From contig CAVTHO010000006.1 in NCBI GenBank assembly GCA_963734545.1, forward strand, positions 288,001 through 352,000: a stretch of 64,000 nt of DNA, read 5' to 3'. Positions 27,666 through 62,010 of this stretch are shown here, in pieces (position 1 is the first letter of the stretch; the number at the start of each line of letters is the position of its first letter). This DNA is from an uncultured Spirochaetota bacterium (GTDB taxonomy: Bacteria > Spirochaetota > Spirochaetia > SZUA-6 > Fen-1364). Below the pieces are notes generated by a model. That model did not search any database. It saw only the letters and a program-made list of their open reading frames with translations, and was not told where the DNA came from. A program made the translations under genes and the position numbers.

Positions 27666-30344
27666 ATGATTCAATTCACATTGAATGGCGACATTGTCGA
27701 GGCGGAAGGTGAGGGGACGCTCCTTTCCTACCTGCGCGGGGTGGCTCTCCTTACCGGGGCAAAGAACGCCTGCGGCGAGGGGACCTGCGGCGCCTGCTCG
27801 GTTATCGTGGACGGGTCCCTGGTCACATCCTGCACAATTCCCCGGTCGAGAAGATGGCCGGCAAATCGATCATCACTGTGGAAGGAATCCAGAAAGCCGA
27901 GATGGACGCCTACGTGCGCGCCTTTGCCGACGCAGGGGCGGTCCAGTGCGGGTTCTGCACGCCGGGCATGGTGATTGCCGCAAAAGCCCTGCTCGACAGG
28001 AACCCGAGCCCCACGGAGGCCCAGGTACGCACCGGCCTGCGACGGAACCTCTGCCGCTGCACGGGCTACGGGAAGATCGTGGCAGGTGTGCTTCTTGCGG
28101 CGCGCTACAGGGCTTCTGCCTCGGGGCATGTTGACGCTGCGGCCGCAGCGGGCGCCGCGGCGCCGGCAGCTGCACCGTCCGCGGCCGCCGGCATCGGGGC
28201 GCGGGTGCGCCGCGTGGACGCCGCGGCCAAGGCGCGCGGAAGCGCAATGTACGTGGACGATTTTTCCGAGCCGGGCATGCTCTTCGGCGCCGCGCTCAGG
28301 ACTCCTCATCCGCGCGCCCGCCTGGTTTCGCTGGATGTCTCCGCGGCGCGCGCGCTTCGCCGGTGTGGCCGCGGTTGCGACGTGGAAAGAGATCCCCGGC
28401 AACCGGTTCACCGGGCACGTTGTTGCTGACTGGCCGACGCTTGTGGCCGTGGGAGAAGCTGACCCGGTACGTGGGAGATGCGGTGGCCCTTGTTGCCGCG
28501 GAGTCCCCCGAGGTTGCCAGGGCGGCCTTATCGCTCATCAGGGCGGAATACGAGATTCTCGAGCCGATGCGATCACCCGAAGCCGCGCTTGCACCCGGGG
28601 CCCCGGCAATTCATCCAAAGGGAAATGTGCTCACCCGGCTCGCGCTCAAACGAGGGGACGCGGAAAAGGCAATTGCATCTGCCGCGCATGTCGTGCATGC
28701 CAGCTTCGAGACGCCGTTCACCGACCACGCATTCATGGAGCCGGAAAGCGCCCTCGCGTATCCCCCTGACCGGGACGGAGTGGTCCTGGTTCTCACGGGG
28801 GAGCAGAACGTGTACGACGGCCGGAGGTACGTGGCGGATACGCTCGGCCTTCCCCCGGAGAAAGTGCGCGTGATCTCGGCATACGTGGGAGGAGGGTTCG
28901 GCGGAAAAGAAGACCAGACGGTTCAGCACCACGCCGCTCTCCTTGCCTGGCTTTCCCACCGGCCGGTCAAGTGCACGCTGGGCAGGGCGGAGAGCATGCG
29001 CGTGCACGTCAAGCGGCACCCGATGTCCATCAACCTGAGCATGGGCTGCGATGCGGAAGGCAGGCTGGTCGGGTATCAGGCGCGCATCGTGGCGGACACC
29101 GGCGCATATGCCTCCCTCGGCGGACCGGTCCTTCACCGCGCGGTTGCTCACGCGGGCGGCCCGTACGCCTACGGAAACATCGACGTCGAGGGAATGGCCG
29201 TTTTCACGAACAATCCGCCTGCCGGCGCCTTCAGGGGATTCGGCGTGCCCCAGGTCAATTTCGCATTCGAGAGCGCCCTCGATCTTCTGGCGGAGAAGGC
29301 CGGTCTCTCCCCCTGGGAGATACGATTTCGCAACGCGGTCCGTCCGGGAGACATGCTTCCCAACGGACAGATCGCAGGTCCGGACACTGCCCTGGAAGAA
29401 TGCCTCCTTGCTGTGAAGCTCGATTTCGACGCAGCGCCCGGCCGCGCGGGAGTGGCGTGCGGCTTCAAGAACACCGGGCTCGGCATGGGACACAAGGACG
29501 TGGGACGCTGCGTGCTGAAGGTCGAGCCCGATCACGTCGAGGTCCGCACCGGCGCGGCCTGCATCGGCCAGGGGCTTGCCACGGTTCTCACGCAGATCGC
29601 CTGCGATGTACTCTCACTCGATCCCGCGCGGGTGCGCGTCGCGCTTCCCGACACCTTCAACACCCCGGACTCGGGCACGACAACCGCATCCCGCCAGACG
29701 CTGGTGACAGGAGAGGCCTGTCGGCGCGCGTGCATTGCAGCGCGCGAGGCGCTGGAGGGGGCGGGGGTAGGGGCGGGCGGCGAACGGGCAGGCGCCTTCC
29801 CGCTGGCGGTGCTGGCCGGCAGGGAGTTCCGCGGCGAGTATGAGGTGATTACCGATCCTTTCGAGACAGACAAGACCAATCCAATCCGGCATGTAGCGTA
29901 CAGCTATGCCTGCCAGTTGGTGGTCCTCGGTGAGGACGGCCGGATCGAGCGCGTCGTAGCGGCCCATGACTCAGGCGTGGTGGTGAACCCTCTCGCATTC
30001 GAAGGCCAGGTCGAGGGAGGGGTTGTCATGGGGCTCGGGTTCGCTCTCACCGAGCGCTTTCCGCTTGTCGACTGCGTTCCCACTGCCAAATTCGGACAGC
30101 TCGGACTGCTCCGGGCCACGGACGTGCCGCCCGGTGAGACGATCATCATCAGGAAGGCTCAGGCGGCGGGCGCGGCCGGCGTGGGCGCTGAACGGCTGCG
30201 GCAACCGGCGCCGCATACGGCGCCAAGGGCATCGGCGAGATCAGCTCGATCCCTACGGCCGCCGCGGTGGCCGGTGCGTACTTCGCGCGGGACGGCAAGC
30301 TCAGGACCAGCCTTCCTCTGGACGGAACGCCGTACAGCAGGTGA
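27666..30344 (+). CDS. xdh: Selenium-dependent xanthine dehydrogenase-like molybdoenzyme (2Fe-2S + Moco domains), frameshifted
   Basis: CGEGTCGAC, QCGFCTPG, NLCRCTGY, HAFMEPE, GGGFGGKED, AFRGFG, SGTTTASRQT, KGIGE. Confidence 0.85.
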
Positions 30345-30430
30345 GGACAATCGATTGATCGGGACACGACCGTCCTTGTTTCCACGAGGGAGGTGTGCCG
30401 TTAACGGTTCGAGTCCGACAGGGGGAGCCA
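30225..30430 (+). repeat. Direct repeat copy 1: xdh 3' end + spacer + tRNA-like 3' fragment (att-like)
   Basis: Matches 58158-58362; ends GGTTCGAGTCCGACAGGGGGAGCCA (T-loop, acceptor strand, CCA), followed by hairpin + T-tract. Confidence 0.9.
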
Positions 30431-31955
30431 GAACTGGACAGGTCGTCTCAGACGAGGCGGCCTGTTTTTTTGTGTCTTGGTGGTGCGCCGCGCCTCTTGG
30501 GCGATCCGGTGGATGATGTCGAACGGTGGCTTGAAGGCCGGGACCACCTGGTCCTGGTCGAGCGTCGAGCCCGGGCAGGATGAAGCCCAGGAGCGCCGCG
30601 CGCTCCGCTTGGCCGTGGGTCCGGAAGAACTCCTGGGCGTTCCGCGCGATCTCCAAGAGCCGGATCCCCTGCTCGATGTAGTTCTGGTCCGCCTTCTCGT
30701 GGCGTTCGATCCGGGCCCGGATCTGGGCTTGCTCCTCACGCCACGCGGAGACGTTGCGGCGGTAGAACGCTTCCTCGATCTCCCCGTCCAGCTTGTCCAG
30801 GTAGATCTGGTCGATGCGGTTCTGGAGCTTGGCGTACTGGGCGTTCAGCTTCTCGATGGCGCGGCGGTGGAACTCCGCCTTCTCCTTCTGGCTCTGGCGC
30901 AGCGCCTCCCGCATCCAGTCGAGCAGGGCCTCGGAGAACTGAAGCTCCCCGAGGATGTCCTCAAACTGCCGCTCCAGCTCCTCCTCCCGCACGTACAGCC
31001 CGCCGCAGGTGCCCTTGTCGAAGGTGCAGTGGTAGTAGATGTAGCGGTCCTTCTTGATCTCGGCGGTGATGGCGCAGCCGCAGGCGGCGCACTTCAGGAG
31101 GCCGGTGTAGGGGAAGCGGTGGGCCGTGGCCCGGGTGTCGTTTCTCTGCGCGGCGACGGCCTGGGCGCGGTCAAACAGCGCCTTGTCGATGAGCGGCGGG
31201 TGCTTGCCCTGGTAGCGCTTGCCGTTCCAGAGGAAGGCTCCCGTGTAGAAGGGGTTCTTCAGAATCTGGGCCACCGAGCTGCGACTCACGCGGCGGCCTT
31301 TGCGGGTGGTCAGCCCCTGCCGCGCGGCCAGCACCTCAAGCCTGCGGATGGAGAACTTGCCCGTGGCGTACTGCTCGAACATCTGGCGGATGATCGGGGC
31401 GCGCTGCGGGTCCAGCTCGATGGTCTTGTTGGTCTTGTCGTGCAGGTAGCCCAACGGCGCGTAGGCGGGAAACTCTCCCTCTTCCGCCTTCTCCTGCATG
31501 CCCTTTCGGGTCTCCTCGGAGAGGTTGTCGATGTAGTTCTTGGCCATCAGCACCTTGATGCCGTGGATGAACTTCTCATGGGACCGGGAGTCCTTGTTCA
31601 GCACCGAGCCTTCCTTGACGAAGATCAGCGTCACGTCCAGCTCGTCGATGGTCACGTAGTCCTTGAAGTTGCGGTACAGGCGGTCGGTCTTCTCACAGAG
31701 CAGGATTCGCACCTGGGGGTGCTCCTCCAGAAAGCGGATCATCTCGGTGAAGTGGGTGCGGCCGGACTGCTTGGCGGTCTCAACGTCGATGAACTCGCGG
31801 ACGACCTGGTAGTCGTGGCGGCGGGCGTAGGAGCGAAGCAGCTTGCACTGGGCGGGGATGGAGTAGCCGTCCCGCTCCTGCTCCTTGGAGGAGACTCTGG
31901 CGTAGAGAACGGCTTTGCTGGAAAGAAGCCCGTTCGGCTGCATCTCCTCCCTCAT
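30401..31955 (-). CDS. Large serine recombinase (integrase), frameshift near 3' end
   Basis: YARVSSKEQ catalytic Ser, DRLYRN, APLGY, ILKNPFYTG, GKHPPLI, zinc ribbon C..CG..YYHC, coiled coil; C-terminus WLPLSDSNR reads through the tRNA fragment. Confidence 0.93.
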
Positions 31956-32038
31956 GCGGTCAGCTTCAGCCTCCTACGGTCCCCGCCTACCGTCCCTGGT
32001 AGGCGGGGCATCTTGGCGCGGCGCAAGGACGCGCCGCG
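31811..32038 (-). repeat. Inverted repeat A (LSR leader + first codons); partner at 36543-36769
   Basis: Near-identical reverse complement; hairpins CGCGGCGC..GCGCCGCG and CCCCGCCTACC..GGTAGGCGGGG. Confidence 0.92.
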
Positions 32039-32126
32039 CGCCCCCCAAATCCCAAAAACGCGCTCCATACTATCCCTTCAAAGACGGTTGTCAATTGAAG
32101 ACCCCGCACAAGAGCACTCCGATGGA

Positions 32127-35100
32127 TCACGCTATTATCGCGTCCAAGACAAACGACTCTATTCTGAGGCCCGAAGATTCGCTTGTGATCGCCTCCGCCT
32201 GCCCCTCGAGGTAGGATCTAGCCTTTTGAAGCGTCTTCCACTTAGGGCGATAATCCGGCGGAATCCCTGGAACATCGAAGTATGCAACAACGAAAATGCC
32301 GTGGGTCAACCCATTGTCGCGAAGGTAGCGGTCGACAAGCTGGTCACGCATCGCGGTCCTACAAGTGCTGTTGTAAGAGTTCTTCACTTCCACAACGACG
32401 CTAAGCATCGTTTGACGAGGTTGCTGTAACGGGACCTGGACCAGTATGTCAGTCTCCTGGCCGGGCTTTCCCCCAAGTTTCCGTGCCACCAGCCGTCTGC
32501 GCAACTGCGTTTCTCGTGTGGCCACCAAGAAGTAGTCTTCCCCCTTCTTGCTGATTACGTGAACCAAGTTGTCCGAAACGGCCTCTTCATTTTTTGGCGT
32601 TGGAGATTGGCCGCGAGGAAGGTTCCAGAGATTCGATGAGAGCGGAGGCGGTCCGCGCAGGGAGCTCTGATACTCGTCCAACGCATCGACTACTAGGTCG
32701 AGAACGTCATCGTTGGATCTTAGCAGCTTTGCGCCGCTATCACGCAAGACCCAGACGACTTCCCGAAGATCAATCGGTGACCAACTTTGCATTCGTTCGT
32801 TGCGTTCAGCCTCAGAACGCGCAAAGCGGAGCCATGGATATTCACGACCGTACTTGCTTTCGATATAACGGACGGCGTCCACGGCATCCGGTGTTCCCTT
32901 GCCAGCTAGGAGGGAGAGAAGCCTGCTACGTAAAAAGACCGCCGAGTCCGCGGGACCAACAAAGTGTGCGCCTTCGTGCTGCGGATCGTCTCTCGGGGGG
33001 TAGGCCTGAAATAGCAAATCTAGCAACGTGCCTTGCTGTGGATCGCTCATTAGCGACAACCACGCGGTCTCGGTCCCTGGAATATGCGCCAAGCTGGAGA
33101 GGGTGGCCTTACGCACTCCCGCGCGCCGGCTTAGTACGAAGAATACTTTCTCGCAGCTACCGGGCGGGGAGCGACTTTAGGAGAGCCACCGCCGCGCGCA
33201 CGGCGGCATCCGAGCTCGCTGAATTCCGGGAAGAGACCGGCTGAAGCAAAGGGGCATGGCGGTTTCTGGAGCTCTCCTAAGCGACTCATCCATGACAAGG
33301 CTTAGGTTGTCGCCTCTTACCGCCTTGGCATGGATTAGTCGGCATATCGTGCTATTGAGGCGCTCGTCACTGACCTCTCCAAGTGCCTCAAAAATCGAGC
33401 CAAGGACACTGAAGCCTGACGGATCGCACGCAACTACCTTGATCCGCCGCCAAATTGCCTCAGGTAGGATGTCGTACGCAAGTCGCATGAGGAGTCTCTT
33501 GGGCCCCATCGGTTCCTGATCCAGCCGGTATCTGGTTTCTCTAACCACATACCAAATCCATATTTTCCAGATTCTGTTGCTGAGTGACTTCAAGAATGAA
33601 AGATCAACCTCGGCCAGGAGAAAGAAAGCCTCCATGACGCCGTCCATCGGTATGGTAGAGTACTCCTCTTCCTCTACGCGAGATGCCAAGTCGGTACAGT
33701 CCGTGACCAGTCGCTTCGCGGCCTCAACGATCTCCGCCCGGTCCTCTGGGCCCGCTTCTGCCCAACCCTCTGTTCGCACAATGAAGCGCGCAAATCTTTC
33801 TCGCCCGCGTTCGTCCATTGCTATGGCCCGGCGAAAGCCCGGCAAACCAATGAGGATCGTATTGGCATCTGGAAAGATAGCTGGTGACCACTTCCCTCCT
33901 AACGGCGTGTGTTTCCCCTTGCTCCTTTTCTCCCTCTCGCATCAGCCTGAGAAAGCGGCGTCCTGTCTCAGCTTCCTTTGAATCCAGTCGAACCGCAAGC
34001 GGAGGGAAATGGGACACAACAATAGGCTCGGCTCTCGATTGGTAGAGCAGATCAAAGCAGGCGTCATAGTTCTGCCATGGCAGCCAAGCGGCCATCTTGG
34101 CGAAGCTATCGGCCGCCGGCGAGCGACCTGAAATCGCCTTCTGCAGAAGCCATCCGAAATCCTGAACGTCGGCCAGGGCCGGCACCGACCTCAGGCCCTG
34201 GAATAGCTCCATCTCAGATGGGGCAAGCTTGGCAATGCATTCCAGCATAGAGTGCCGAAGTTGAGTATCCCTTTCGAATCTTGAAGCTATGGTCGCAGTA
34301 TCGTTCGTGGTCAGGAGTTCCTTACTCTTTCTATGAAGGAAGAAGGGTGCTGCGCCAACGCTTCCCGCTCGGATCACCCGGCTTGATAACTCCATGCAGA
34401 TCTCGTCTTGATCGGCCAAATCGAGAGCTCGGTAGGCGATAAGGCCAGCGATTTCCGATAATGGATCATCATGATGACGTCTCTTCCCCACTGAAGAAGC
34501 CCATTTGAGCACTTCGAGGTCAATTTGAGGCAGGGGGACAGCGCCCTGCGTCATCATCCACAAGAAATACTTGTAGGGCCCCATGTAGTTGCTGGCCTTT
34601 GGCGGCGAAAGTACTTGCAGGAGCTCTGAATCGCTCATATTCCAAGGCCAATTCAGTTGAAGGGCGAGGCCCTTCAGGTCGTCTTGCACGTCTTCTGGGA
34701 GGCCAACAGATAGAGGTTTGAGAGCACCTTTGCTCGATTCATTCCCAATCTCAGAAATCGCGTGGCCGCATTGAACGCGTGTTGCCAAGGGCAGGCTTTG
34801 GTCCAATGCCATCCGAGCCAAGTCCATGGCAAGTCCGACGAAACCGTTGCTTTCTGCCACCTTAATGGCAAAGGAGTGAACGTCCGCTGTATTCCCTGCT
34901 CTCTCAGCCAGGACTCGCCTTATATCGTCCTCAACTCCGTCATAGAAAAATCCTGATGTAAGGGCTTGATCTTGATGAACCTGAGCCTCCGTAAGACGCC
35001 CTGCCTTGAACATCTCAATTGTGGCTCTGAATGCGACTTTTCGAATTTCGTAGCTAGCAACTTCGCTACGGCCGATGAGCTCCGGGTCAGAAGTCGATAG

Positions 35101-36213
35101 CCAACCGGCAAACTCTGGATTGAAGCTCGCCGCCCACGCAGCGATCTCTTGTAAGGGACCAGCAATTCCGGATGCGTGCCCGCCGTCTCTGCTTAGCATC
35201 GAGCGAACCTGAAAGAGCGGCATTGTTGAGATTTTCTTTCCGGCAAGGAACTCCGCAATCTGCCGGTGTATGAAGCGGGCCCATTGGAACCCGGCACTAG
35301 TGAAGAGACCAGTTTCGCGAAGCGTCCGTAGCCCGTCGGCGTCGAATCCCAAACCCTCGAGCACTGCGATGTCGATTGAGCTTCCCTCAATCGTGCCTGA
35401 CCGAGACAAGCCTATCGACTCAGCCCCGGACAACAGCATCGCCGCGGCTACCTCCCCTGCCAGCCGTACGCAAGCGTCGACATTCGTCACCCGTGCTGTT
35501 CTACGCTCGTGTCGATCGAATGGGTCTTCGCACAGACGCCTAACCGCTCTGTCGAACAACTCGATTCGGCTACTGATTACCAGCCTGCCGGCCTTCCGAA
35601 ACTCGTCGATCAACATCCGCAACGTCATGGGGCGAGTGGCTAGTGAGAGAAGCTTCATTTCTCGGACAGAACGGGCAAACTCCTCAGCCTCAACGCCCTC
35701 TGCTGCCGCCGCTGTCCTGATGTCGTCTATGTCAAGCGGAAGAAGTTCAGCGACATGGACTTCGTCATGACCGTACACCTCGGACAGCGCCCTGACGAGG
35801 AAGCTCGGCCACACAGTGGATCTGCACGCGATTCGCAACGATGGCTTCTGTCCAAGAAACTTAGGGACCCAGTTGGAAAGCACATTCCCAGCCAGCGGAA
35901 CAGGCACCATTGCCTCGTCAAGGGCATCAAGCGCGAGCACGCCTTTACCGTCGGTCTGGGCAGCCAGGCTCTCGATTTCGGCCCTGAGGCCCGCCGCGTC
36001 GCTTACCAGTTCTCCAAGGCTCTTGCTACTGACAAGGCGACCTTGTTCGCGCTCAACCGCCGCAAGAACAGACAGTTCGTGCGTCTTTCCTAGACCAGCT
36101 GCGCCGAGCACGCACACGACCTTGAGCTCGGCCAAGTCGCGGGTGCGGACTTCTCTCTCGGAACCTTTTTCACGAATCGACCAGCGCCGATCTAGCGGCC
36201 AGTTGCTGCTCAA
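32127..36213 (-). CDS. Large STAND/NACHT-like NTPase with C-terminal PD-(D/E)xK-like nuclease domain, frameshifted
   Basis: ORFs 33724-36282, 33177-33845 and 32127-33116; Walker A GAAGLGKT, Walker B LALDALDE, LRIACR, FIHRQIAEFLA; C-terminal TDILV..VEVK; lower GC. Confidence 0.72.
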
Positions 36214-36542
36214 GCTACCCCTCCAGCACTTCTCTATAGCACATCCCTTCCTCAGAGTATTACGCGCACACGTCCCGTTCAAGCGTCCATGCGATCGTGC
36301 CTTTCAAGGCTGAAGCGACTGAGCGCTTCAGCCTTGAGATAACATAAAGGATTTGGAATCCATCTTGATCCTGAGGGGCTGAAGTATGGTGACCACTCAC
36401 CGTCGTCCCGCCTGATCCAGCTCTCCGCCAACACAACCAAGAAATGCGCAACCTCTTTCCCCAACGTGATGAGGCAGCTGAAAGAGGGCAGCCAGCGTGA
36501 CAATCTTCTGGGTCACCAAGTGTGAAGTATGACGAGTTGGAC

Positions 36543-36962
36543 CGCGGCGCGTCCGTGCGCCGCGCCAAGATGCCCCGCCTACCATGGACGGTAGGCGGGG
36601 ACCGAGGAGGCTGAAGGCGACCGCATGAGGGAGGGGATGCAGCCGACAGGGCTTCTTTCCAGCAAAGCCGTTCTCTACGCCAGAGTCTCCTCCAAGGAAC
36701 AGGAGCGGGACGGCTACTCCATCCCGGCCCAGTGCAAGCTACTTCGCTCCTACGCACGCCGCCACGACTCCGGGTGGCCGCTTCCGGGCATCGGTCGCGG
36801 GCCGACCGCGTGCCGACGCGCCCCAACGTCCTGTTGGGGCGCTCATCTGAAGAGGGCCAGAGACACGCGGCAGGGACGCCGCGCGTCTCTGGCCGGGGGG
36901 GGTCATCAAGAAAACAAGCATACTTGGGTGGCAATCCTGTTTCTCTTGCACGATGCCAGTTT
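36543..36962 (+). mobile_element. 420-bp miniature, internally deleted copy of the LSR element core (repeat A + LSR 5' stub fused to repeat B)
   Basis: 36543-36769 is the inverse of 31811-32038; about 36764-36962 is the inverse of 45928-46126. Confidence 0.75.
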
Positions 36963-36985
36963 GCTGTCAAACTATGGCTGACTAA

Positions 36986-39900
36986 TTATATCGGATCATC
37001 TGCCTCGGCGGATTCCGTGCTCAACACCTCCACAAACTCGGCGATGACGGATAGCTCGCCTTCCTCGATGCCCTTAAGCACAATTGGCGTATATGCAGGG
37101 TTGATGGGTAGTAAGCGGATTATGCTATGTTGCCAGGTACCGTCAGCGGAGGCGACCTTCTCGCTCTCGTATCGCTTGACGGTGAACTCGGCGTCGGTAT
37201 CAGGGTCGCGGATGTCTCGGTGTTGGACGAGCACCATGCGCCCTTGCCGGGTACCTTCGACGGGTCCAGCGAAAAGACACCAGGCGCCGTCGGGGATCAA
37301 CGGTTCCATGGACTTGCCGACTACCTGTGCAACGAACATTCCAGGACGCAGACGGTGATTCGCCTCGACAGCTACCCACATCCGATCGTCGTCCTCAACA
37401 TTTTGCGGATTGCTGAATGCACCAGCAGCAGCCTTGAGAGGAACGAGCGGCACGCATGTCACGTAGCGGTCATTCGCATGAGGTTGCACGATTCGGAGTT
37501 TAGGCCTTACTTCTTCTGCGCCAGCTCCTGCTTTCATAGAAGCACTCTTTCCATATGCGTCGCTACGAAGCCTCTTATATGCCTCCGACGCCATCCAAGC
37601 TATAACGACCTTCTGGAAGGGCAGATCGTTCATGTACCGAACGAAGATCTCCTCGTTCTGGTCCATGCGCTCGACGAACAGGTTCTCAAGCAGACTCTTG
37701 AACACCAGCTCGAACTTGTCGCCCGGGTTCACCGCGGCGGCCTGCTTTAAACCGTCGTCCGCCATGGCAGCCTCGACGATCTGATCGAAGAAGAGCTGGT
37801 CTGCCTGGTTGAAGTCAGTGCCGAAGCGCTCGTTTACTATGTCAATGAGCTGGGACAAAGGAATGGGCTGCGGGCGAGCGATGCCGGTGCCCACCTCTGT
37901 AGGACCGTCAAGAGGCTGTGCGTCGCCATCACGCAGACTGATCGAACCCTCGCTGATTTTCTGAAGCCTGTAGTACTCCAAGCGTACATCATCATCGAAC
38001 TGGTAGCCGGGCTCGGTGTGTCGTCTCGGCAGCTTCGAGGCCAGATGTCGAAGGAATACGTAAAGCCGCTCGAGGTCGGAGTCTTGGTAAGGGATTACCT
38101 GGCTGAGGAACCCGTACAGGTTGCGAAACCCCTGAACGTTGCCTCGCCAGAGTTCCGCTTCCTCCTCGTGGTCGGCCTGGAGCGCCGCGAATCGGGAGAC
38201 CGCCGGGTCCAAAGCGGCGTTCATCGCCTGATGGTCGATGGCGCTCTGCTTCGGCTTCGGCTTGAAATAGACGGCACAGAACAGCTCCACCTCTTTGGCC
38301 AGGTAGACCCCCGAAGAATCGAGCTCGCCCTTGAGTTGGTACAGGCGTGCGGGATCCACTTCTTCGCCCATCTCTGCGCCCTCGAAGTAGGTCTTGAACG
38401 CCTCACGGATCTCCTCACGGTCGTTCACGAAGTCGAGAACGAAGGTTTCTTCCTTGAGCGGATGGATGCGGTTCAAGCGCGAGAGCGTCTGTACCGCCTG
38501 GATGCCCGCGAGCCGCTTGTCGACGTACATGGTGTGCAGCAGCGGCTGGTCAAACCCGGTCTGGTATTTCTCCGCGACGAGGAGGACCTGGTACTCCTGC
38601 GTCGCGAACTTCTCGGGGAGCTCCTTCTCTCCGATCCCCTGGTTCATGCCCACTTCGGTGAAGGATACGTTTACGAGCTTGTCGTCTTGAACGATGCCGG
38701 AGAACGCCACCAACGTCTTTATTGGATACCCTTTCTCCTGAATGTACCTATCGAAGCTTTGCTTGTAGCGCACCGCCTCCAGGCGGGAACTTGTCACCAC
38801 CATCGCCTTGGCTCGGCCACCGATCTTGTGACGCGTGAAGGTATTGAAATGCTCGACCATCACCTCGGTCTTCTGCGCGATGTTGTACGGATGGAGCTTC
38901 ATGAAGCGTGCCAGCGCCTTTGCCGCCTTCTTGCGCTCGACGTTCGGGTCGTCCTCGCACGCCTTGAGCAGCTTGAAGTAGATGGCGTAGGTCGTGTAGT
39001 GCTTCAATACGTCGAGGATGAACTCCTCCTCGATTGCCTGCCGCATTGTGTAGCGGTGCGTCGGCTGTCCGTTCCTTCCGAATACGGCCAACGTCTTGTG
39101 CTTGGGTGTGGCGGTGAAAGCGAAGAAACTCAGGTTCGCCTGCCTGCCCCGTTTGGCCATACTGCGAAAAAGCTCCTCCATGTTTTCGACGCCTTCCTCG
39201 ACAGCACGGCGTTGGGCTTCATCACGCAGCGCCTCGCCGCCGAGCACTTCCTTGAGATCGGCAGCGGTCTCTCCGCTCTGCGAGCTGTGTGCTTCGTCGA
39301 TAATCACGGCGCAACGCCGCGTTGGAAGAACGCCCGAGCCGGTCGTCCCTCGCTCCTCGGCCATCTTGAGAAGCTGCCGGGACACAAATGGGAACTTCTG
39401 CAGTGTGGTGATGATTACCGGCACGGCTCTCTCGAGGGCCTCTGCCAGTTGTCTTGATCGCTCGTCGATCTTCTGAACCACACCCCGCTTGTGTTCGAAC
39501 TGGTAGATCGTATCCTGAAGCTGCTGGTCGAGCACAACCCGATCGGTCACTACAATCACACTGTCGAAGACCCGCTTGTTCTCCGCGTCGTGAAGCGACG
39601 CCAGCCGGTGCGCAAGCCAGGCGATGGTATTACTCTTTCCGCTGCCTGCGGAATGTTCGATAAGGTAGTTGTGCCCAATGCCCTCGCGTCTGGCCGCGTC
39701 CACCAGCGTCCGTACTGCCTGCAGCTGGTGGTAGCGGGGGAAGATCATGGTCTCCTTCTTTACCTTACGGCCCTCGTCGTCGCGCTTCTCCTCGATCTGG
39801 ATATGCACGAACCGCGCCAGCAGGTCGAGCAAGCTGTCGCGCTGTAGGACTTCCTCCCAAAGATAGGCGGTGCGATAGCTGCGGCCTGTAGGGTCCGGCG

Positions 39901-40566
39901 GGTTCCCTGCACCACCGTCGCAACCCTTATTGAATGGGAGGAAGTGGGTCGCCGAACCGGCCAGCCGTGTCGTCATCAACACCGCTTCGGTGTCGACGGC
40001 GAAATGTATGAGGGTTCGACGCTTGAACTCGAAGATCGGCTCACGCGGGTCGCGGTCCTGCTTATACTGCCGACGTGCGTCCTCTACAGTCTGGCCCGTG
40101 AGCGGGTTTTTCAGTTCTAGGTAACGATGGGGATTCCGTTAAGACTTAACATGACGTCGAGAGATTTCTCCGACCTTGCCGAGTAGTGGAGCTGCCGAGT
40201 CAAGCCCAAGCGGTTGGCCGCATAGCGGGCTTCCAACTCCAGGTTCAGCTCGTGCGCGGCCTTGAAGAACGCGACATGAAGCGTCCGTCCATAGCACTTG
40301 AACCCGTGACGAAGGGTCGCGATCGATCCATTGGCGTCCATCCATTTGCACAGGTCGATGAGGATCTGCTCCCCCGTCTTCTCGCCGTGCAGCGCCTCCA
40401 GCTTAGCCCACTCCTTAGGCTGGGTCTCACGGATGAAGCCGAGCACCGCCTCAGGGAAGATTGCGCGGCCGCGATCGAAGCCGTAGCGGGCTACATGTAA
40501 ATAGCCGTTCTGGAGGAGGTGCGCCTCGATGACGGTCTCGAAGGCCGCTTCGTTCGTTCGGTTCAT
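36986..40566 (-). CDS. hsdR: Type I restriction subunit R with C-terminal S24 (LexA-like) peptidase domain, frameshift near 40117
   Basis: LNGIPI..ELKN nuclease, HSAGSGKS, DEAH, FTATP, QTGFDQP, QTLSRLNR; C-terminal AAAG..GKSMEP..TVKR. Confidence 0.9.
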
Positions 40567-41057
40567 TGCTTGGGTCCCAGTACGAAGCGCGCCCGCTCAT
40601 GTCGGAGCATTTCGTATGGCGTCATGCACTTGATTCCAAGACCGATGCAGGCGTCGGGAATCTTGATCTTGCGCGTTGAAGCGGAAGGGACTTCGTGCGT
40701 CACGACTGTATGCTTGCCCGCATGAGCCTGTGCCACCAGGTAGTAGTCGGCCACCTGAAGAAACGTACTGACGGCGGAAGGTTCGTAGCTCTGACCGGTC
40801 GCCCAGGTGCTCACCGCGGCCAGAGAAGGGAACGACGCCGCGTCGGGCCGGAGGAAGAAACCGGCGCCCCGTGCGTCGGCCCATCCCGACAGTTCGTCCG
40901 CCACGGCCTGCACTTCGTCGCCGACCTTCTCGACGCTGAACACCGTGCCGGCCGCGTTGTTCTCGATGAGCCACTCCCAGAACGCCGGGCAGAAGTCGAG
41001 CCCGTAGTGCAGGTTCTTGGCACGGATGAACACGTCGGCATCAAGCAAGTAGGCCAT
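40563..41057 (-). CDS. DUF4411 family PIN-like protein
   Basis: YLLDADVFI.A...Y..DFCPAFWEWL, ADYYLVA.A, VVTHE, KIKIPDAC. Confidence 0.85.
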   Translation of the reverse strand: MAYLLDADVFIRAKNLHYGLDFCPAFWEWLIENNAAGTVFSVEKVGDEVQAVADELSGWADARGAGFFLRPDAASFPSLAAVSTWATGQSYEPSAVSTFLQVADYYLVAQAHAGKHTVVTHEVPSASTRKIKIPDACIGLGIKCMTPYEMLRHERARFVLGPKQ

Positions 41058-42204
41058 CAGAACCCCAACCCCAGGCTGTGTCCTAGATCGCGAAACGTCG
41101 CCATCTTCTTGAAGCCCAGCAGCCGGAAAGCCTCCGTAAAGGACGAGCTGCCTTCCAACGTGCTGACCACCAGAGCGCGGGCGAAACGTTTGCTCGCCCT
41201 TGCGCCGAGCGTCAGGTAGAAGTCGCCGCCGCTTCCCTTCGGAAGCTTGCGCAGCCGATCGAGCTCCGCATCGTATGCCGCCCAATAGGCGTCGCGCGTG
41301 AGCCCGCCCGCATCGTGGATGCGGCGCAGGATGACCAGCGTGCTCACCTTGAAGCGCCGCGCCAGTCGGTCCATCTCGGTGCGCAACTCGGCGCGGCGGT
41401 CGTACTCGGCGCGGAGAACCTCCAGCGGCACGAGCAGCTCGGCGGCGACCTGGTTGCACCAGCGCTCCACCTCATGGTCGGGCACCGAGGCGGCCTGCGC
41501 ATCGGAGAGGGCGGACTGGCCGAGCCAGATATGCACAAGCTCATGTGCCAGCGTGAACATCTGCGCCGCCTTGGTGTCTGCGCCGTTGATGAACACGAGC
41601 GGCGCGAGGTCATCGGCCAGCGCGAATCCGCGGAACTCCTGCGGATCGAGCTTGCGCCGGTTGTTGCTGCCCACGACACCGCTCACCATCACGAGCACGC
41701 CCAGCGCGTCCGCCTGCTCGATGAAGTGGCGCAGCGCGTCGGTCCAGGTCGGCATTCGGCGGCGCTCCTCGACGTCGAAGCCCAGCGCGTGGCGGATCGC
41801 GCGCCGCCGTGCGCACCACGTCGTCCGTCACCCGCACGGAGCCGACGAACGGCAAGCGGCGCCTCTCCCATGGACCGCGCGAAGTCCCGGTACCACTCCT
41901 GGCGCTGCTGGCAGAGGTACAGAGTGTCGAGCAGGTCGGGGCTCGGGCGATCGATGCGCTCGGTTGCGACCGTGCGGAAATCCGGAATCGGTACACGCTC
42001 GACCGGCGGCTCTGGAAGGAAGAGGTAGCCAACCGGCGTGTGCGTGGCCTTGGCGAAACCCTCGAGCTGCTTGAGCGTCGGTTGTTTTTCGCCACGCTCC
42101 CAGGCCGGAAGCTGCGGAATGCGGTGCGCCAGCGCACCGAGTCCAAGCCCCGCACGCTCGCACGCCCAGCGCAGCATCTCCGGCCTGACTTCGACATACA
42201 TCAT
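41057..42204 (-). CDS. HTH + ImmA/IrrE family zinc metallopeptidase, frameshifted
   Basis: N-terminal HTH ([13 protein letters not shown]), [15 protein letters not shown] (HExxH), E.WCN.VAAELL.P. Confidence 0.88.
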
Positions 42205-43490
42205 GCCATAGCCTCTTGGACGTCAATCTGGCCTGTCACAGCCGCGCCGATGAGGGCGGCGCGGCGTTCCTTGAGTAGGGCGATTGTGCGTTCAGTTGCG
42301 GCTTGCAGCGCGTCAATCTCGGCTGTCTCCGCGCGGATATAGGCTACGATAGTGCGCTGTTCATCGAGGGGTGGTACCGGGAAGAAAACTTCGAAGAAGC
42401 CCTCGGGATAAAGGCGTAGCCGCGACGACCATACACCCTTTGAGTACCGGGTCACTTCCTGCGCGAAAATGGGGATGCGAACCAATGCATCTACGAACTG
42501 GGGATCAAGTCGAGGGCCGGGCTGGTACACATTGTAGGCGGGGCTGACTATGCCACTCACAGGCGACACGCCCATGGCACCCATCCAAGCCCAAAGTGTA
42601 TTGATAACGAGGTCGTTCGCGTGGCAGATCTTGTACCCTTCTGTTGTCTTTGCTTCGAACATGTTGACATCTTTTTCAGCCCGGGTAGTCACTCCCGTAA
42701 GATGTGAAACGGTTAGTAGCTCCTCCTCTCCGGTCTCCGAGCGTACATCGCGCTCCCGAAAAAGCCACTGCGATCTCTCGACCTCCCAGTGGGTGGGAAT
42801 CTCGTAGAGCCATGGGATGCCAGAATCTCTCAGTGGGGCGCTGGAGTCGAGGCCGCGGGTGACGGCCCGGGTGATGAGCGCCCGACGTTTCTCGGCCAAC
42901 AGCCTGAGTACCCGCTCCTTTTCCGCTACTAGCGCATCCAGATGCGCCGTCTCGCGGTCGAGGTAGAGCGCGACAGCTCTTTGAGTTGGTGGAGGAGGAA
43001 GCAGCACCGCTTGCTCTGCTACCTGCTCCGCGTTCAGCGAAGGCACAGCACCCGGATTGGCAACTTGGCCAAAGTCTACAAGCGCCAAGTTATGGAGCAT
43101 GAACCGTTGGTCAGCACGACTGCTATCGAGAATAAGACCCATCATATTGTTGTCGATGCATGAAGCTTGTCCAAGAAATCTGAACCGGTTCAGCAACAGA
43201 GCTGCACCAACCTTCGCAAACACGATTGTGCCAGCGGGAAAGACGAAGGCTCCGAGTTGCGTAGCGGTATCACGCGATACGGAATGTTCACTGTATATTA
43301 GGCAGCCGTCTATGTTGGCTTCCGCAAGGTGCTTCACTTTAAAGAAAGGCAGTTCTTCGCCCTTCGTTCCTTGCTCGATATCTGGAAAGCCCGCGCCGCC
43401 TTTCAATCGTCCGAGATATCTGAGGCGAATTCGTGGCCACCGCGTTGCTCCAGGCGATACTTGGTCTGTAATCGGGCCAAGTTCACTCAC
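42201..43490 (-). CDS. hsdS: Type I R-M specificity subunit S
   Basis: Two variable TRDs separated by conserved PP..Q..I..YLD.ETA.ID..L..E.R.ALI..AVT helices. Confidence 0.9.
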   Translation of the reverse strand: MSELGPITDQVSPGATRWPRIRLRYLGRLKGGAGFPDIEQGTKGEELPFFKVKHLAEANIDGCLIYSEHSVSRDTATQLGAFVFPAGTIVFAKVGAALLLNRFRFLGQASCIDNNMMGLILDSSRADQRFMLHNLALVDFGQVANPGAVPSLNAEQVAEQAVLLPPPPTQRAVALYLDRETAHLDALVAEKERVLRLLAEKRRALITRAVTRGLDSSAPLRDSGIPWLYEIPTHWEVERSQWLFRERDVRSETGEEELLTVSHLTGVTTRAEKDVNMFEAKTTEGYKICHANDLVINTLWAWMGAMGVSPVSGIVSPAYNVYQPGPRLDPQFVDALVRIPIFAQEVTRYSKGVWSSRLRLYPEGFFEVFFPVPPLDEQRTIVAYIRAETAEIDALQAATERTIALLKERRAALIGAAVTGQIDVQEAMA

Positions 43491-45476
43491 TCCGTCACCT
43501 CCCGCAGTAGCCGCATGATCTCTTCCTCCGCTATTTTCAGCTCCGCATCTATCTCCTCCAGCGGGCGCGGCGGGGTATACTTGTAGAAGTGACGGTTGAA
43601 GTTGATCTCGTAGCCTACTTTATCTTTGCTTCGATCCATCCAGGCATCGCGCACGTGCGGGAGCACCTCGCGCTCGAAGTAGGTGTCGATGTCGTCCTTC
43701 AGCGGTACGTTCTCGAAGTCGCGCAGGTCGGGGTCGGGCTCGTAACCGTCGTCGCGTCCACCCTTGGCAACCGGCTCAGCTTCGGGGTCCTTCTGCGTGA
43801 AGACGCTACGGAAGAGCTTCTGCTCGGTCGCCTTCCAGCGGGACTTGCGCTTGCTGAAGTAAGTCCTCAATGCGGCTCCACGCCGCGTTCCAGTCACATT
43901 GCGGCTCGCGGCCAAGTGCCTTATCGATGGCCTGAATGTCACCGAGCAGGTGCGGGTATGTGTCGAGGAAGCGAGTTTTGTCCTTGACGGTCATCTGATA
44001 GCACAGCCTCAGAGGCCGTTCGACTGTTACACGGGTGTAACCGAAGTCGGCATTGTCAAAGATCTTTGAGTTGTCGCCGTCGCAGAAACGGCCATAAAGC
44101 CTCACGATTTCCGCGATATCCTTGGAAGACATGTGGCGGCGCTTGTCGCCGAGGCTCCGCTTGGAATCCTCGCTGCCTCCTGGCTGCCACTTGGCGCGGG
44201 TATCGACGAGCAGAATCCTTCCCTTGCGGCGCTTTTCCTTTCGGTTGGTGACGATCCAGATGTATGTGCCGATGCCGGTATTATAGAACATCTGCTCCGG
44301 CAGGGCGATGATGGCTTCGAGCCAGTCGCTCTCTATGATCCACTTGCGGATGTCGCTTTCTCCCGAGCCCGCACCACCGGTGAAGAGGGGTGAGCCGCTG
44401 AAGACGATTGCAAGCCGCGAACCATACTTTTGCTGGTTGGGCAGGACTGGCTCGAATTTACTGATCATGTGCTGGAGGAAAAGGAGAGCACCGTCGTTGA
44501 CGCGTGGAAGGCCGGCGCCGAAGCGGCCGCCGAAGCCGAGCTTGTCGTGCTGCTGCTCGATCTCCTTCTGCTGCTTCTTCCAGTCCACGCCGAAGGGCGG
44601 GTTCGCGAGCAGGTAGTCGAAGGTATCACCTTCGAACTGGTCGTCAGTAAAGCTGTCGCCGAAACGCACGTTGTCGCCGCTGCCGTTGTGGTCCACCTGC
44701 TTCATGAGTATATCTGAGGCTGCGGTCGCAAACGCGCGCTTGTTGTAATCCTGGCCGTAGACGAAAAGTCTGGCTGCCGAGTGATGTTGGCGGAGGTAAT
44801 TCTGGGCTTCGGCGAGCATGCCACCCGTGCCGCAGGCTGGGTCTAGAAGCTTGCGCACGGTACCGGGCGTTGCGAGGAGCTTGTCGTCGTTAATGAACAG
44901 GATGTTCACCATCAACCGGATGACTTCGCGCGGCGTGAAGTGATCGCCGGCGGTCTCGTTGGCGAGTTCGTTGAAGCGCCTGATGAGGTTTTCGAAAATT
45001 AGCCCCATCTGCTCGTTCGGCACCGCGGCCGGATGCAAGTCGACGTCGCAGAACTTTGAAACCACTAGGTAGAGAATATCCGCCTCTCGCATCCTCTCAA
45101 TCTCGTTCTCGAACTCAAAATAGTCAAAAATAGTGCGGACATTGGCGGAGAAGCCCTTTATATAGCTGACCAAATGTCTCTCGATGTTGTCGGGGTCACC
45201 CTTCAGCTTCTCGAAGTCGAGCTGCGAGTGGTTATGTAAGCGCTGTCCGGCGGCCTTGTTCAGGAGCTTGTCGAGCGCATCGTTGTTGAGCCTGCCGCCC
45301 TTTCTCTTCTCGTACTCCGAGACGACCTTGGCTTTGGTCGGCGCGAGCACGCAGTCGAAGCGGCGAATCACGGTCATCGGGAGCATCACACGCTCGTATT
45401 GGGGCGGTCGATAGGGGCCGCGTAGCAGGTCGGCGATCTGCCAGATGAGGTTCGCGAAATAGTTGTGGTCAGGCAT
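43487..45476 (-). CDS. hsdM: Type I R-M N6-adenine methyltransferase subunit M, frameshifted
   Basis: HFTPREVI, DPACGTGGML, NPPF, MFYNTGI, GYEINFNRHFY. Confidence 0.93.
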
Positions 45477-45495
45477 CAGTCACCCCAGCCTAACG

Positions 45496-45762
45496 TTATC
45501 TGATATGTGCCATTTCGCGCCCGGTCTGCGGCGTTCCTGGCAACCCTGCGCCTTCATTGCTGTTTTGCTTCCGGCGGTTGTTGTCATTCCGGCCAGCACT
45601 ACCTGTATGCACCCACTTGTCGACTTCTGATATTTTGAACTTCCACAGCCTACCCACTCGGTGAGCAGGCAATCGTTTGCTCTCGATCCACCGGTAGACA
45701 GAATCCTTCGCGACGCCAAGATGATTCGCGACTTCGTCAACCGAAACCCAAAACTCTTGCAT
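45496..45762 (-). CDS. Excisionase-like HTH DNA-binding protein
   Basis: SVDEVA.HLGV.KDSVYRWI....LPAHRVGRLWKF..SEVD.W. Confidence 0.85.
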   Translation of the reverse strand: MQEFWVSVDEVANHLGVAKDSVYRWIESKRLPAHRVGRLWKFKISEVDKWVHTGSAGRNDNNRRKQNSNEGAGLPGTPQTGREMAHIR

Positions 45763-45927
45763 TGTCTTTCCTTTAAAAGCGCTCTGTCCAGTAAGGCTTT
45801 CGGCTTAAGCCTATATTAGAAACTATCACGGTCTATGAGGATGCACAAGAGCAGATATAAGTGGGTAAGAATCGGCGTCATTAATCGCTTACATGAAAAT
45901 TGATTCGCACTTTCTTTAGCGACATAA

Positions 45928-46126
45928 AAACTGGCATCGTGCAAGAGAAACAGGATTGGCACCCAAGTATGCTTGTTTTCTTGATGACCCCCCCCGGGCC
46001 AGAGACTCGCGGCGTCCCTGCCGCGTGTCTCTGGCCCTCTTCAGAGGAGCGCCCCAACACGGACGTTGGGGCGCGTCGGCACGCGGTCGGCCCCGACCGA
46101 TCCTCGGAAGAGACCACCGGGTCGCG
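45928..46126 (-). repeat. Inverted repeat B; partner at about 36764-36962
   Basis: Near-identical reverse complement containing two GC-rich hairpins and a G/C run. Confidence 0.92.
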
Positions 46127-46149
46127 GATCGGTCGAAGAGACGCCAGTC

Positions 46150-46495
46150 TCACGCACGGGCAAGTATCCCCCTCACCGTGTTGGCTTGCCAGACGCCGTT
46201 CTGCTTGGTCGGGATGAGCTTCAGGTTGAGATTGCCGGCGATCTCCCGCAGAGACAGCCCGCCGGCGCGGTACTGCCGCATCATTCGGATCGCCGCTTGC
46301 TCGGCGCTCGTTCTTCACGAGCTGGTGGTTCAGGTAGTCGAAGCCGAAGGGCAGTTGGCCGGTCCGCTTGCGCCCGTTCCCGTTCCGCGGGATGCCGAAT
46401 CGGTCCAGAGCCTCCAGCACCCCCGCGTGGCTCACGCCGACCAGCCGCTCGATCTCGCGGGCGGATAGGTGCTCGCTCGTGTAGAGCCGCTCCAA
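46150..46495 (-). CDS. Small HTH + Recombinase-type DNA-binding domain protein lacking a catalytic domain, frameshifted
   Basis: LSAREI..LVGVSH..V, GQLPFGF, EQAAI..M...R..GLSLREIA..LN...IPTK..G.W...TV..IL. Confidence 0.65.
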
Positions 46496-47036
46496 GGCAG
46501 GCCCTTGCTTCGCAAGGAGCAGACGGGCGGCAGCGGGATAAGGCCCTCAATCAGCGCGGGAGCGCGACCGTGCCCGTTTGCTTTCTGTTGGGCCGGGGGA
46601 GACGAGACCGACTCGAACAGGCCTCTCAAACGGCGAGCAGAGCGGGGATTTCCTCGATCTTGTGCTCGTAGCAGTAGGTTCGAAGCTCGTCCAATAGGGG
46701 GAGCGACGGCGAACGGTACGCGAACTGGCTCTTTCAGGCAAACACCTGAGAGAGCCAGTTTCATTTCCGCGTCCATCAGAAGCAGCCTTGAGATCAGCCC
46801 GTGGATGCCCAGCTTGAGGGCTTCCCCGGTTTGATCGAGCACTTTCCGAAGGCTGTATCGGGTGAACTGATCCTCCCGGTGCTTCAGGATGGATTCGGCC
46901 TGACCAATGGCATCGAGGACGAACGTCTATTTCTCTTCGAGCCCCTTCTTGCGCTGCCCCGCAAACTTCGGACCAGGGAGTGCCATTGCCCGGATGCGGG
47001 TGCCGAGCACGTACAGTTCTCCGTGGATCTCACGGC

Positions 47037-57136: not shown

Positions 57137-58058
57137 ATGGCCAGGCCGAGAATTACCGTCGTGGGAAGCAACATGGTCGATCTCATCACCTATATCCGCC
57201 GGATGCCGAAGGAGGGGGAGACCATCGAGGCCCCTCGATTCGAAATGGGCTTCGGCGGCAAGGGCGCCAACCAGGCGGTGGCGGCGGCGCTCCTCGGCGC
57301 CGAAGTGTGCATGGTGACCAAGGTCGGAGACGACCTGTTCGGGCCCAACACGAAAAAGAACTTCGAGCGCTACGGCATCGACACGAGCCACGTCGATATC
57401 GTGCCCGGAGTTTCGAGCGGGGTGGCTCCCATCTTCGTCGACGAGAAATCGCACAACAGCATCCTCATCATCAAGGGCGCCAACGCGCACCTCACACCGA
57501 AGGACGTGGACAGGGCGAAAGACAGGATCCTGAAGAAGCGACGTCGTGATCATGCAGCTCGAGATCAGCCTGGAGACCGTCTACCACACCATCGAGCTGT
57601 GCGCTTCGCGGAAGGTCCCCGTCATCCTGAATCCCGCGCCCGGGGACCCGGCGCTCGACGTGGGTAAGATTCGAAGCGTCTCCTTCTTCGCTCCGAACGA
57701 GACCGAGCTGCAGACGCTCACCGGCCTGCCGACGGGAAGCCTCGAAGAGGTGAAGGCCGCGGCGCGAACCCTCCTGGCCAAAGGGCTTCCGAAGATCATC
57801 GTGACTCTCGGGGAGAAAGGCTGCCTGCTCCTTACGGCGGAAGGGGAAACGCTCGTGCCGGGCTTCCGCGTGGCGAGCATGGACACCACCGGCGCCGGTG
57901 ACGCGTTCATCGGCTGTTTTGCCGTGTACTTCGTCGAGACCCGGGACGTCGCGAAAGCCCTGGAAACCGCCAACCGGTACGCGGCTCTTTCGACGATGAA
58001 GCCCGGGACGCAGAAGTCCTTCATTGACCGCAAGGGCTTCGAGGCGGCAGACCGGTAA
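57137..58058 (+). CDS. rbsK: Ribokinase/deoxyribokinase (PfkB family), frameshifted
   Basis: GSNMVDL, GGKGANQAVAAA, LNPAP, PNETE, DTTGAGDAF. Confidence 0.85.
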
Positions 58059-58157: not shown

Positions 58158-58362
58158 AAAGGCATCGGTGAGATCAGCTCGATCCCCACGGCTGCCGCTG
58201 TTGCAGGCGCGTACTTTGCGCGGGACGGAAAGCTCAGATCCAGCCTTCCTCTGGAGGGAACGCCGTACAGCAGGTGAGGACAATCGATTGATCGGGACAC
58301 GACCGTCCTTGTTTCCACGAGGGAGGTGTGCCGTTAACGGTTCGAGTCCGGCCTGGGGAGCA
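58158..58362 (+). repeat. Direct repeat copy 2: orphan xdh 3' end + spacer + tRNA-like 3' fragment
   Basis: KGIGEISSIPTAAAVAGAY..PYSR*, identical spacer, then GGTTCGAGTCCGGCCTGGGGAGC. Confidence 0.9.
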
Positions 58363-58369
58363 GGATTGG

Positions 58370-58404
58370 ACAGGCAGCTCCGGGATCCGGGGCTGCCTTT
58401 TTTG
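58370..58404 (+). terminator. Rho-independent terminator after the tRNA-like fragment
   Basis: AGGCAGCTCCGG-GAT-CCGGGGCTGCCT then TTTTT. Confidence 0.75.
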
Positions 58405-58482
58405 TTTCCCAGGGTGATCCTAACAACAGCGTCATCCGCGGCTATGTTGACCGCGGAGAATGGCGGCTCCTATAATGGATCG

Positions 58483-61927: not shown

Positions 61928-62010
61928 TAAGACAAGACACAGATGCAAAGAGCCGGAATGGCGACAAACCGGCTCTTTGATTGCATACGCCACCATACTG
62001 GGAGGCATTT

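Follow-up and report, generated by a model that had tools for sequence, protein, structure and literature searches.

Inverted repeats of a serine-integrase core beside defence cargo in a tRNA-Asn island of an uncultured Spirochaetota bacterium

The locus and its two pairs of inverted repeats

The window analysed here, a stretch of 64,000 nucleotides from an uncultured Spirochaetota bacterium (GenBank assembly GCA_963734545.1, contig CAVTHO010000006.1, positions 288,001 to 352,000), contains a putative mobile island with a gene for a large serine recombinase (LSR) at one end and a small partner gene, S, at the other. Between them lie two anti-phage modules, which are separated by a 420-bp unit composed of inverted copies of two segments of the element core, A and B. 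These inverted repeats are most likely a scar: we consider it probable, if by no means certain, that the 420-bp unit is the leftover of a second, closely related core, and thus a product of rearrangement and not a proven genetic switch. An earlier note made from the letters of the sequence had described the layout as LSR, A, a STAND gene, A'B', a type I restriction-modification (R-M) operon, B and a small recombinase-domain gene, and scans of open reading frames (ORFs) and domains returned the same order. The features of the core, the repeats and the flanks are the following (positions in the window, strand in brackets):

27685-30343 (+), gene X in the left flank, of the xanthine-dehydrogenase family (Pfam Fer2_2, hammerhead, MoCoBD_1/2), split into two ORFs
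30159-31955 (-), LSR ORF, 598 aa as assembled, with Resolvase, Recombinase and Zn_ribbon_recom domains
30399-30470 (+), left junction of attL type, a truncated 3' part of tRNA-Asn (T arm and acceptor end) with the core GGGGGAG at 30421-30427
31811-32038 (-), repeat A, an 83-nt leader with two GC hairpins, a ribosome-binding site and LSR codons 1-48
32067-32094 (-), promoter-like site (TTGACA, 16 nt, TAGTAT) directed toward LSR, just outside repeat A
36543-36769 (+), A', the inverted copy of A
36625-36981, chimeric ORF of 118 aa opened by A', with 48 aa 96% identical to LSR
36770-36962 (+), B', the inverted copy of B
45928-46126 (-), repeat B, the 3' flank of S with two conserved hairpins, a G-run (45988-45995) and a 60-nt extension (45928-45987)
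46150-46495 (-), gene S, a helix-turn-helix followed by the first half of a Recombinase domain, frameshifted near 46307
46591-46704 (-), right end, the P arm of attR with the core GGGGGAG at 46697-46703, encoding the conserved last ~24 LSR codons of the attP form
46705-46958 (+), DNA that natively follows tRNA-Asn (compare G008:C57 and G024:C121)

Both A and B proved to be true inverted pairs in a repeat search, in a search of the bacterium's own genome and in a self-BLAST of the window. The repeat search of 29-49 kb returned five inverted segments that merge into the two pairs. Self-BLAST aligned A with A' (31811-32038 versus 36769-36543) over 228 nt with 94.7% identity (E 7e-98) and B' with B (36770-36962 versus 46121-45928) over 195 nt with 94.4% identity (E 7e-79). 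In global alignments, A and A' are identical at 216 of 228 positions with a longest exact run of 50 nt, and B and B' at 188 of 202 positions with a longest exact run of 38 nt, so that A' differs from A at 12 and B' from B at 14 positions. The cargo-side 70 nt of B and B' are 99% alike, compared to 94-96% elsewhere. In the 5.1-Mb assembly of the own genome, no further sequence of A or B type was found beyond these three places. The closest copy of A' is the resident A (95%) and that of B' the resident B (94%), and any other copy reaches at most 93%. Nearly all differences between A and A' are derived in A'; within the 48 codons, four of the derived changes are synonymous and three nucleotides in two codons change residues. 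A 196-nt contig of the unrelated public run X2, which ends within the repeat, corresponds to A' and not to A with 0 differences (window 36545-36740), indicating that the A' variant exists in another sample.

The 48 codons in A include the region of the catalytic-serine motif of the LSR, and B begins 24 nt past the stop codon of S (46150). The repeats had been described as rich in hairpins, which agrees with their folding: the leader in A forms two GC stems (z -2.8 in one copy and -2.2 in the other), and B forms two to three stems, two of them long (z -5.0 and -4.9). An Rfam scan of the whole window yielded no family at gathering score, with a chance-level match as the only one in 45800-46800, and the hairpin pattern of B had 0 matches in viral contigs. 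Alignment also confirmed the junction of A' and B' at a short microhomology, where A reads ...CCACGAC/T and B reads ...GCGAC/C and CGAC is common to both. The 420-bp unit hence corresponds to the core minus the part from LSR codon 49 to the position 24 nt downstream of the S stop codon, lost at CGAC, and lies in inverted orientation. The claim that the similarity ends at the cargo edges did not hold exactly: A' is devoid of the G-run at which the conserved core terminates, its edge lying about 10 nt before that canonical position, and B and B' run 60 nt (36903-36962 in B') past the G-run at which relatives end. These 60 nt are common to B and B' alone and are present in no relative.

Integrated form, free form and cargo slot

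The recombinase ORF matches the Pfam profiles PF00239 (4e-23), PF07508 (2e-17) and PF13408 (1e-9), all above the cut-offs, and the combination of Resolvase, Recombinase and zinc-ribbon domains identifies it as a large serine recombinase. Its best resemblances among NCBIfam profiles are CcrB, CcrA and XisF, all far below the cut-offs. Homology to the LSRs of relatives extends from 31955 to about 30406. The window LSR is 82% identical to the LSR of metagenome contig L048 and contains a garbled stretch; relatives are at 86-94%. Its residues from about 463 to 502 are out of register with relatives. As assembled, the window LSR is predicted to miss the frame of the attP tail after excision.

The ends of the island can be placed by comparison with relatives. 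On the left, synteny of the flank stops at 30335-30398, and the attachment site consists of just the 3' part of the tRNA, fused to intergenic DNA after flank gene X; ARAGORN called no whole tRNA in the window. The core is followed by a hairpin and a T-run, which correspond to the element end beside the 3' end of LSR. On the right, among the matches listed, at least 14 from 11 family genomes have their end precisely at 46704, and the DNA from 46705 to 46958 is 87% and 74% identical to the DNA that directly follows intact tRNA-Asn(GTT) in G008:C57 and G024:C121, respectively. Judged by these boundaries, the island extends from about 30399 to 46704 (~16.3 kb), with ends derived from tRNA-Asn(GTT).

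All four types of attachment sites were aligned (three attB, one attL plus two truncated attL-type junctions, two attP and three attR). They have the core GGGGGAG in common, and their arms swap as expected for one crossover. The attB site is the 3' end of tRNA-Asn, intact in G000:C4, G008:C57 and G024:C121; in attL (metagenome contig L047), the LSR-side arm comes after a whole tRNA-Asn; in attP (L048 and L049), the LSR-side arm comes after the S-side arm; and in attR (in the window and twice in G000:C4), the S-side arm leads into the downstream flank of the tRNA. The earlier note had predicted that A and B would be neighbours in the order A-LSR-att-S-B only across the att junction of an excised circle. 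This order is indeed contiguous, on one strand and within 2.3 kb, in L048 and L049, which are two of the 80 metagenome loci kept and two of the three closest (80-82% identity), the third being the integrated form. Over 1647 bp, contigs L047 and L048 share 99.3% identity; they diverge at the core, into tRNA-Asn in one case and S-B in the other, indicating that integrated and free (or tandem) forms both exist. For the window itself, 46704 is connected with 30435 in a single contig of low depth from run X3. The domains of the recombinase, the four site types and the two forms together characterise a large-serine-recombinase integrative element, the catalytic activity of which is predicted.

In the contiguous form, the reading frame of LSR passes through attP, with the last ~24 codons encoded by the S-side arm (ORFs of L048 and L049), and S starts at most ~75 nt from the LSR stop codon. 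Integration therefore swaps the tail of the LSR and parts S from LSR; in the circle, both genes may be co-transcribed. The S gene of the window is frameshifted, and related contigs have one base fewer at 46307/8. The intact S of the relative G015 matches positions 3-50 of the 102 positions of PF07508 with 31 bits (cut-off 21.1) behind a helix-turn-helix. A protein search with S returned 151 homologues at E <=0.001, with a common length of 120-123 aa and all ending in ...ILARA, indicating that S is a conserved gene and not a random fragment. In a class-wide search, S matched 4 of 301 genomes (the window's own genome, G000, and three others), which points to a narrow family, and a scan of the genome collection gave three loci, two of which are the G015 copies. 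The predicted complex of S and LSR scored 0.00 with two alignments, which is evidence neither way. S and an HTH_17 ORF of the cargo may both be named as candidates, and only as such, for a directionality factor.

Comparison of the flanks in relatives agreed with the proposal of a conserved core with variable, mostly defence-related cargo beside A and beside B. In seven copies of the A leader (A, A', two from metagenomes and three from family genomes), the hairpins are shared and agreement starts at the G-run; upstream of it all seven aligned copies are unrelated, even in the 99.3% identical pair L047 and L048. Ten copies of B share two hairpins, in which four base pairs are kept by compensatory change, and in the eight copies from other genomes or contigs the homology stops at the G-run. 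The cargo that follows B is a type I R-M system in the window, a LacI regulator with a sugar transporter in G024:C93, a BREX system (BrxC/PglY, PglX, BrxHI, PglZ, BrxA) in G015, two type II methyltransferases in G011 and the 3' end of a type I methyltransferase, facing B, in L048. It is thus related to defence in four of the five loci.

Origin of the 420-bp unit

A remnant of a second core would fit into the following scheme. In the free or tandem form, the core would be a single block of the hairpin leader A, LSR, attP within the last LSR codons, S and the hairpin module B. The island would be moved by recombination of the LSR at the 3' end of tRNA-Asn(GTT), and integration would split the block, leaving LSR and A at one end and S and B at the other, so that all DNA between the split halves would be exchangeable cargo, here the two anti-phage modules. 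A second core has probably lost LSR, attP and S by deletion at the CGAC microhomology, with its remnant inverted between the two cargo modules, and the inverted position of A'B' places one module between two A ends and the other between two B ends. Two routes to this arrangement would be the simplest: either a tandem dimer of two elements underwent inversion of its internal core junction (A-LSR-att-S-B) and then the deletion, or an opened circle was inserted in reverse; the order of the steps is what we infer. Tandem stacking is seen in the same genome, where LSR-less remnants with an attP-like internal junction lie at tRNA-Asn. Of the earlier suggestion that the unit is an internally deleted core reinserted in reverse, the internal deletion remains the best reading, and the reverse insertion is plausible, with a tandem dimer or a repair patch fitting equally well. 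The mini-unit is unique to the window: a second copy of the 5' region of LSR occurred in 0 of the 80 metagenome loci, 40 of which contain at least 3 kb of upstream sequence, and A-type matches in the 24 other family genomes were located only at the LSR gene (three genomes).

Several observations weigh against the leftover of a second core. The inverted orientation takes one or more illegitimate events of which there is no other trace, self-BLAST of the window detected no duplications of cargo, and no contig was found to carry both ends of a complete second element, different cargo between B and A being seen one side at a time. The differences derived in A' would be explained equally well if A' had been imported from a sister element or if it had arisen locally and decayed. 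G015 carries a 913-bp, 99.8% identical inverted duplication of S-B around its BREX system, without A, which means that inverted core duplications flanking defence cargo arose at least twice in 25 family genomes, and the two cases hint at a recurrent process rather than a single accident. Finally, the LSR, S and NACHT genes of the window carry frame breaks, and the activity of this copy is uncertain; gene X and a PfkB gene are also split, so that assembly indels are an equally good reason for these breaks as decay.

It is possible, though rather unlikely, that no second element was involved and the unit is a templated repair patch, in which a break between the cassettes was mended by copying the resident B and then A with template switches at microhomologies. 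The CGAC at the join of A' and B', the resident A and B as the closest copies, the excess of derived changes in A', as for a decaying copy, and the 60-nt extension common to B and B' all speak for such an event. However, the outer edge of A' would then lie only by coincidence so near, to about 10 nt, to the canonical boundary of the core, and the ratio of synonymous to nonsynonymous changes in A' leans to past coding constraint, although the numbers are too small to decide. An inverted unit created by mis-joined reads at the repeats is highly improbable. The genome is a metagenome-assembled draft of 10 contigs with 89% completeness, in which several genes are split by frame breaks, but the differences between A and A' and between B and B' identify them as distinct sequences and not as collapsed copies, the perfect match of the X2 contig to A' comes from an unrelated run, and repeats of ~200 nt are presumably short relative to the reads needed for such contigs. 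Collapse of repeats during assembly was discarded on the basis of the same sequence differences.

A working inversion switch, which the earlier note had considered, is in our view unlikely. Recombination between A and A' would flip the NACHT cassette and shift LSR away from the promoter-like site at 32067-32094 to the other flank, thereby turning expression of the integrase down or up, and recombination between B and B' would flip the R-M cassette. Inverted repeats do bracket a segment, their exact runs probably have the length that homologous recombination requires, the cargo-side 70 nt of B and B' are nearly identical, and G015 provides a second inverted pair around defence cargo. The promoter-like site lies just outside A and matches the consensus at 10 of 12 positions, but two such sites were found in 5.4 kb with 1.3 expected, so that a single match is within chance and weak on its own. 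The repeats have diverged by 5-6%, giving no sign of frequent conversion, and the att-derived motifs GGGGGAG, GGTTCGA and TGGACAGG, searched on both strands as possible crossover sites, are absent from A, A'B' and B. Nor is the arrangement conserved in related elements, as the duplication of A is lacking in all 80 related loci and the 24 other family genomes and the pair in G015 comprises S-B only. In addition, the cassettes seem to hold their own upstream regions inside the repeats, so that a flip would not obviously change expression. Fifteen public sequencing runs matched the sequence, each with at most 0.15 of the sampled words and as assembled contigs, and four were mapped to the window; among the joints listed for these four runs, which are joints in contigs and not in reads, none changed strand at the repeats, which is evidence neither way on inversion. 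Summed contig depth was 35-55 for LSR and 13-16 for S-B versus 0-6.5 for cargo in run X1, and 69-82 and 13-30 versus 0-13.5 in run X3, but these values were not used as support, as the runs had been chosen using part of the window and contig depth is unfit for ranking.

Well-known switches, such as Hin/Gin-type invertases, shufflons and phase-variable hsdS genes, likewise have an inverted-repeat segment beside a serine recombinase gene, with one repeat overlapping its 5' end. In contrast to them, the repeats of the window are 200-230 nt long, diverged and devoid of an att-like site, the enzyme is an LSR of the integrase type, alternative gene ends or a cassette promoter outside the repeats are not evident and the arrangement does not recur in relatives. 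The repeats could support rare inversion of the RecA type, but a programmed switch is not indicated. More speculative, and doubtful in our estimate, is the idea that a minimal LSR element of two genes has a cassette slot that takes up and reorients defence systems, and that the hairpin and G-run modules on the outer sides of A and B serve as dedicated boundaries of this slot. Inverted core copies, such as those of the window and of G015, would arise repeatedly from the hairpins and let the host flip cassettes. If this were true, the integrase would be cut off from its promoter after a flip at A and A', and the island would become fixed in its position.

Two further classes were rejected. An integron-type cassette platform, with IntI, attI and an attC hairpin on each cassette, is contradicted by the location of the hairpins in the core and not in the cassettes, and no tyrosine recombinase was found among the scanned ORFs. 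In a composite transposon, the repeats would be insertion sequences with transposase genes, but A' contains 48 LSR codons only, and B is the non-coding 3' flank of S. We retain the remnant of a second core as the favoured origin of the 420-bp unit.

Cargo, remnants and related elements

The cargo of the window comprises the following genes:

32127-36282 (-), cargo 1, one NACHT STAND antiphage-like gene, EruA/HyoA-like
33724-36282, 33177-33845 and 32127-33116 (-), the three ORFs as which cargo 1 is read
36986-45762 (-), cargo 2, type I R-M operon (Pfam, PADLOC)
36986-39982 (-), hsdR with a C-terminal S24 peptidase domain
40117-40566 (-), HSDR_N fragment
40563-41459 (-), DUF4411 gene
41057-41755 (-), M78 peptidase gene
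42201-43490 (-), hsdS
43806-45476 (-), hsdM
45496-45762 (-), HTH_17 ORF

The gene in cargo 1 had been called a STAND nuclease. Its assignment to the STAND proteins stood, as a NACHT protein resembling EruA/HyoA by NCBIfam, but no nuclease domain was found and neither Pfam nor PADLOC gave a match. The 852-aa ORF matches positions 4-672 and the 329-aa ORF positions 1031-1316 of the EruA profile, far below the curated cut-offs. In cargo 2, the S24 peptidase domain occupies aa 847-982 of HsdR, the HSDR_N part is encoded by a separate ORF of 149 aa, and the genes for an M78 (IrrE-like) peptidase and the DUF4411 protein sit between hsdS and hsdR. In the fetched loci, the HTH_17 ORF, called xis in the earlier note, had no homologue except the window's own copy and one chance-level match, indicating that it belongs to the cargo and not to the core. 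No genes for phage functions, conjugation or replication were seen in the 16 kb. Frame breaks affect gene X (27854-30516), a PfkB kinase gene (57137-58058), the NACHT gene (32127-36282) and S (46150-46495). Since housekeeping genes are split too, assembly indels are likely and calling pseudogenes in the window is unsafe.

The window contains a second junction of attL type at 58158-58409 and 61995-62200, consisting of the last 174 nt of X and the same truncated tRNA remnant. As far as checked, it is identical to 30225-30417 and then continues into a different element arm. Next come pieces of a second LSR in scrambled order (aa 495-577, 376-405 and, inverted, 224-245 and 186-200), between which sits an AAA_16/NACHT STAND gene (58168-59910). 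This pattern points to a probable segmental duplication of the junction together with a second, decayed defence island. In the window's own genome, two remnants without LSR are stacked head to tail after an intact tRNA-Asn(GTT) at G000:C4:70336-79285 (locus L044 4336-13285): the first is a 1.4-kb unit in which only the two element ends were kept, and after it come an attP-like junction and 7.4 kb to another right end. The DNA that natively follows tRNA-Asn is located not at G000:C4 but in the window at 46705-46958, which suggests a chromosomal rearrangement mediated by the elements.

In G015:C10 (L033/L034), a BREX system of 17.8 kb lies between the repeats, which occupy 9858-10769 and 28586-29497 in the joined stretch. 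At the right end, the attR core and the terminator arm face an inverted remnant of the tRNA 3' end over a 17-nt loop, forming a hairpin-centred palindrome, and the left copy of S-B is devoid of the last 20 nt of the element end. At G008:C57:1147-3233 and G024:C121:330-2429, an unoccupied tRNA-Asn has a lone B-like double hairpin, with no S, some 1.6 kb downstream of it. Either the B-like module also exists outside the element or these two copies are old remnants.

Among known systems, the island shares the enzyme architecture with LSR integrative elements such as serine-integrase prophages, SCC cassettes with Ccr recombinases and the fdxN element with XisF. The chemistry of attP x attB recombination is implied here by the short core, which is all that the four site types have in common, and in both cases the recombinase gene lies beside the attachment site and the cargo is variable. 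In contrast to these elements, the window island targets the 3' end of a tRNA gene, a target typical of tyrosine integrases; in its family the LSR frame crosses attP, so that integration replaces the last ~24 codons; and a conserved partner, S, with half a Recombinase domain is located just across attP. In our literature search, which was not exhaustive and leaves absence unproven, no description of a tRNA-targeting LSR element of this kind was found.

Tycheposons are described as cargo elements at tRNA genes that are stacked with partial tRNAs between them and leave behind fragmented integrases and partial tRNAs, and nearly all of them (474 of 501) carry tyrosine recombinases (10.1101/2020.12.28.424599). 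The window with its debris of partial tRNAs and integrases and the tandem array in G000:C4 show similar tRNA-seeded accretion. The island differs from tycheposons in having an LSR instead of a tyrosine recombinase, a two-gene core and defence cargo only. Pipolins, an example of defence hotspots inside mobile elements (PMC11551731), are likewise integrative and combine a fixed core with a changing set of defence systems. Compared to pipolins, the core genes and the recombinase are different here, and the slot is bounded by conserved hairpin modules ending in G-runs. The family is set apart by the tRNA target of its LSR, the position of attP in the coding end of LSR, the presence of S, the hairpin and G-run boundaries and the strong bias toward defence cargo.

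The island thus represents a compact and apparently undescribed family of serine-integrase islands in uncultured Spirochaetota, for which all four forms of the attachment site, with a tRNA gene as target, were recovered from natural sequence. The family yields a concrete, testable pair of attP and attB and a candidate accessory factor. Its slot was repeatedly occupied by anti-phage systems, namely type I R-M, BREX, methyltransferases and a NACHT gene, and the window illustrates a way in which the defence cargo of two islands can become united. Long inverted repeats that consist of pieces of an integrase core can be scars of element fusion and not switches.

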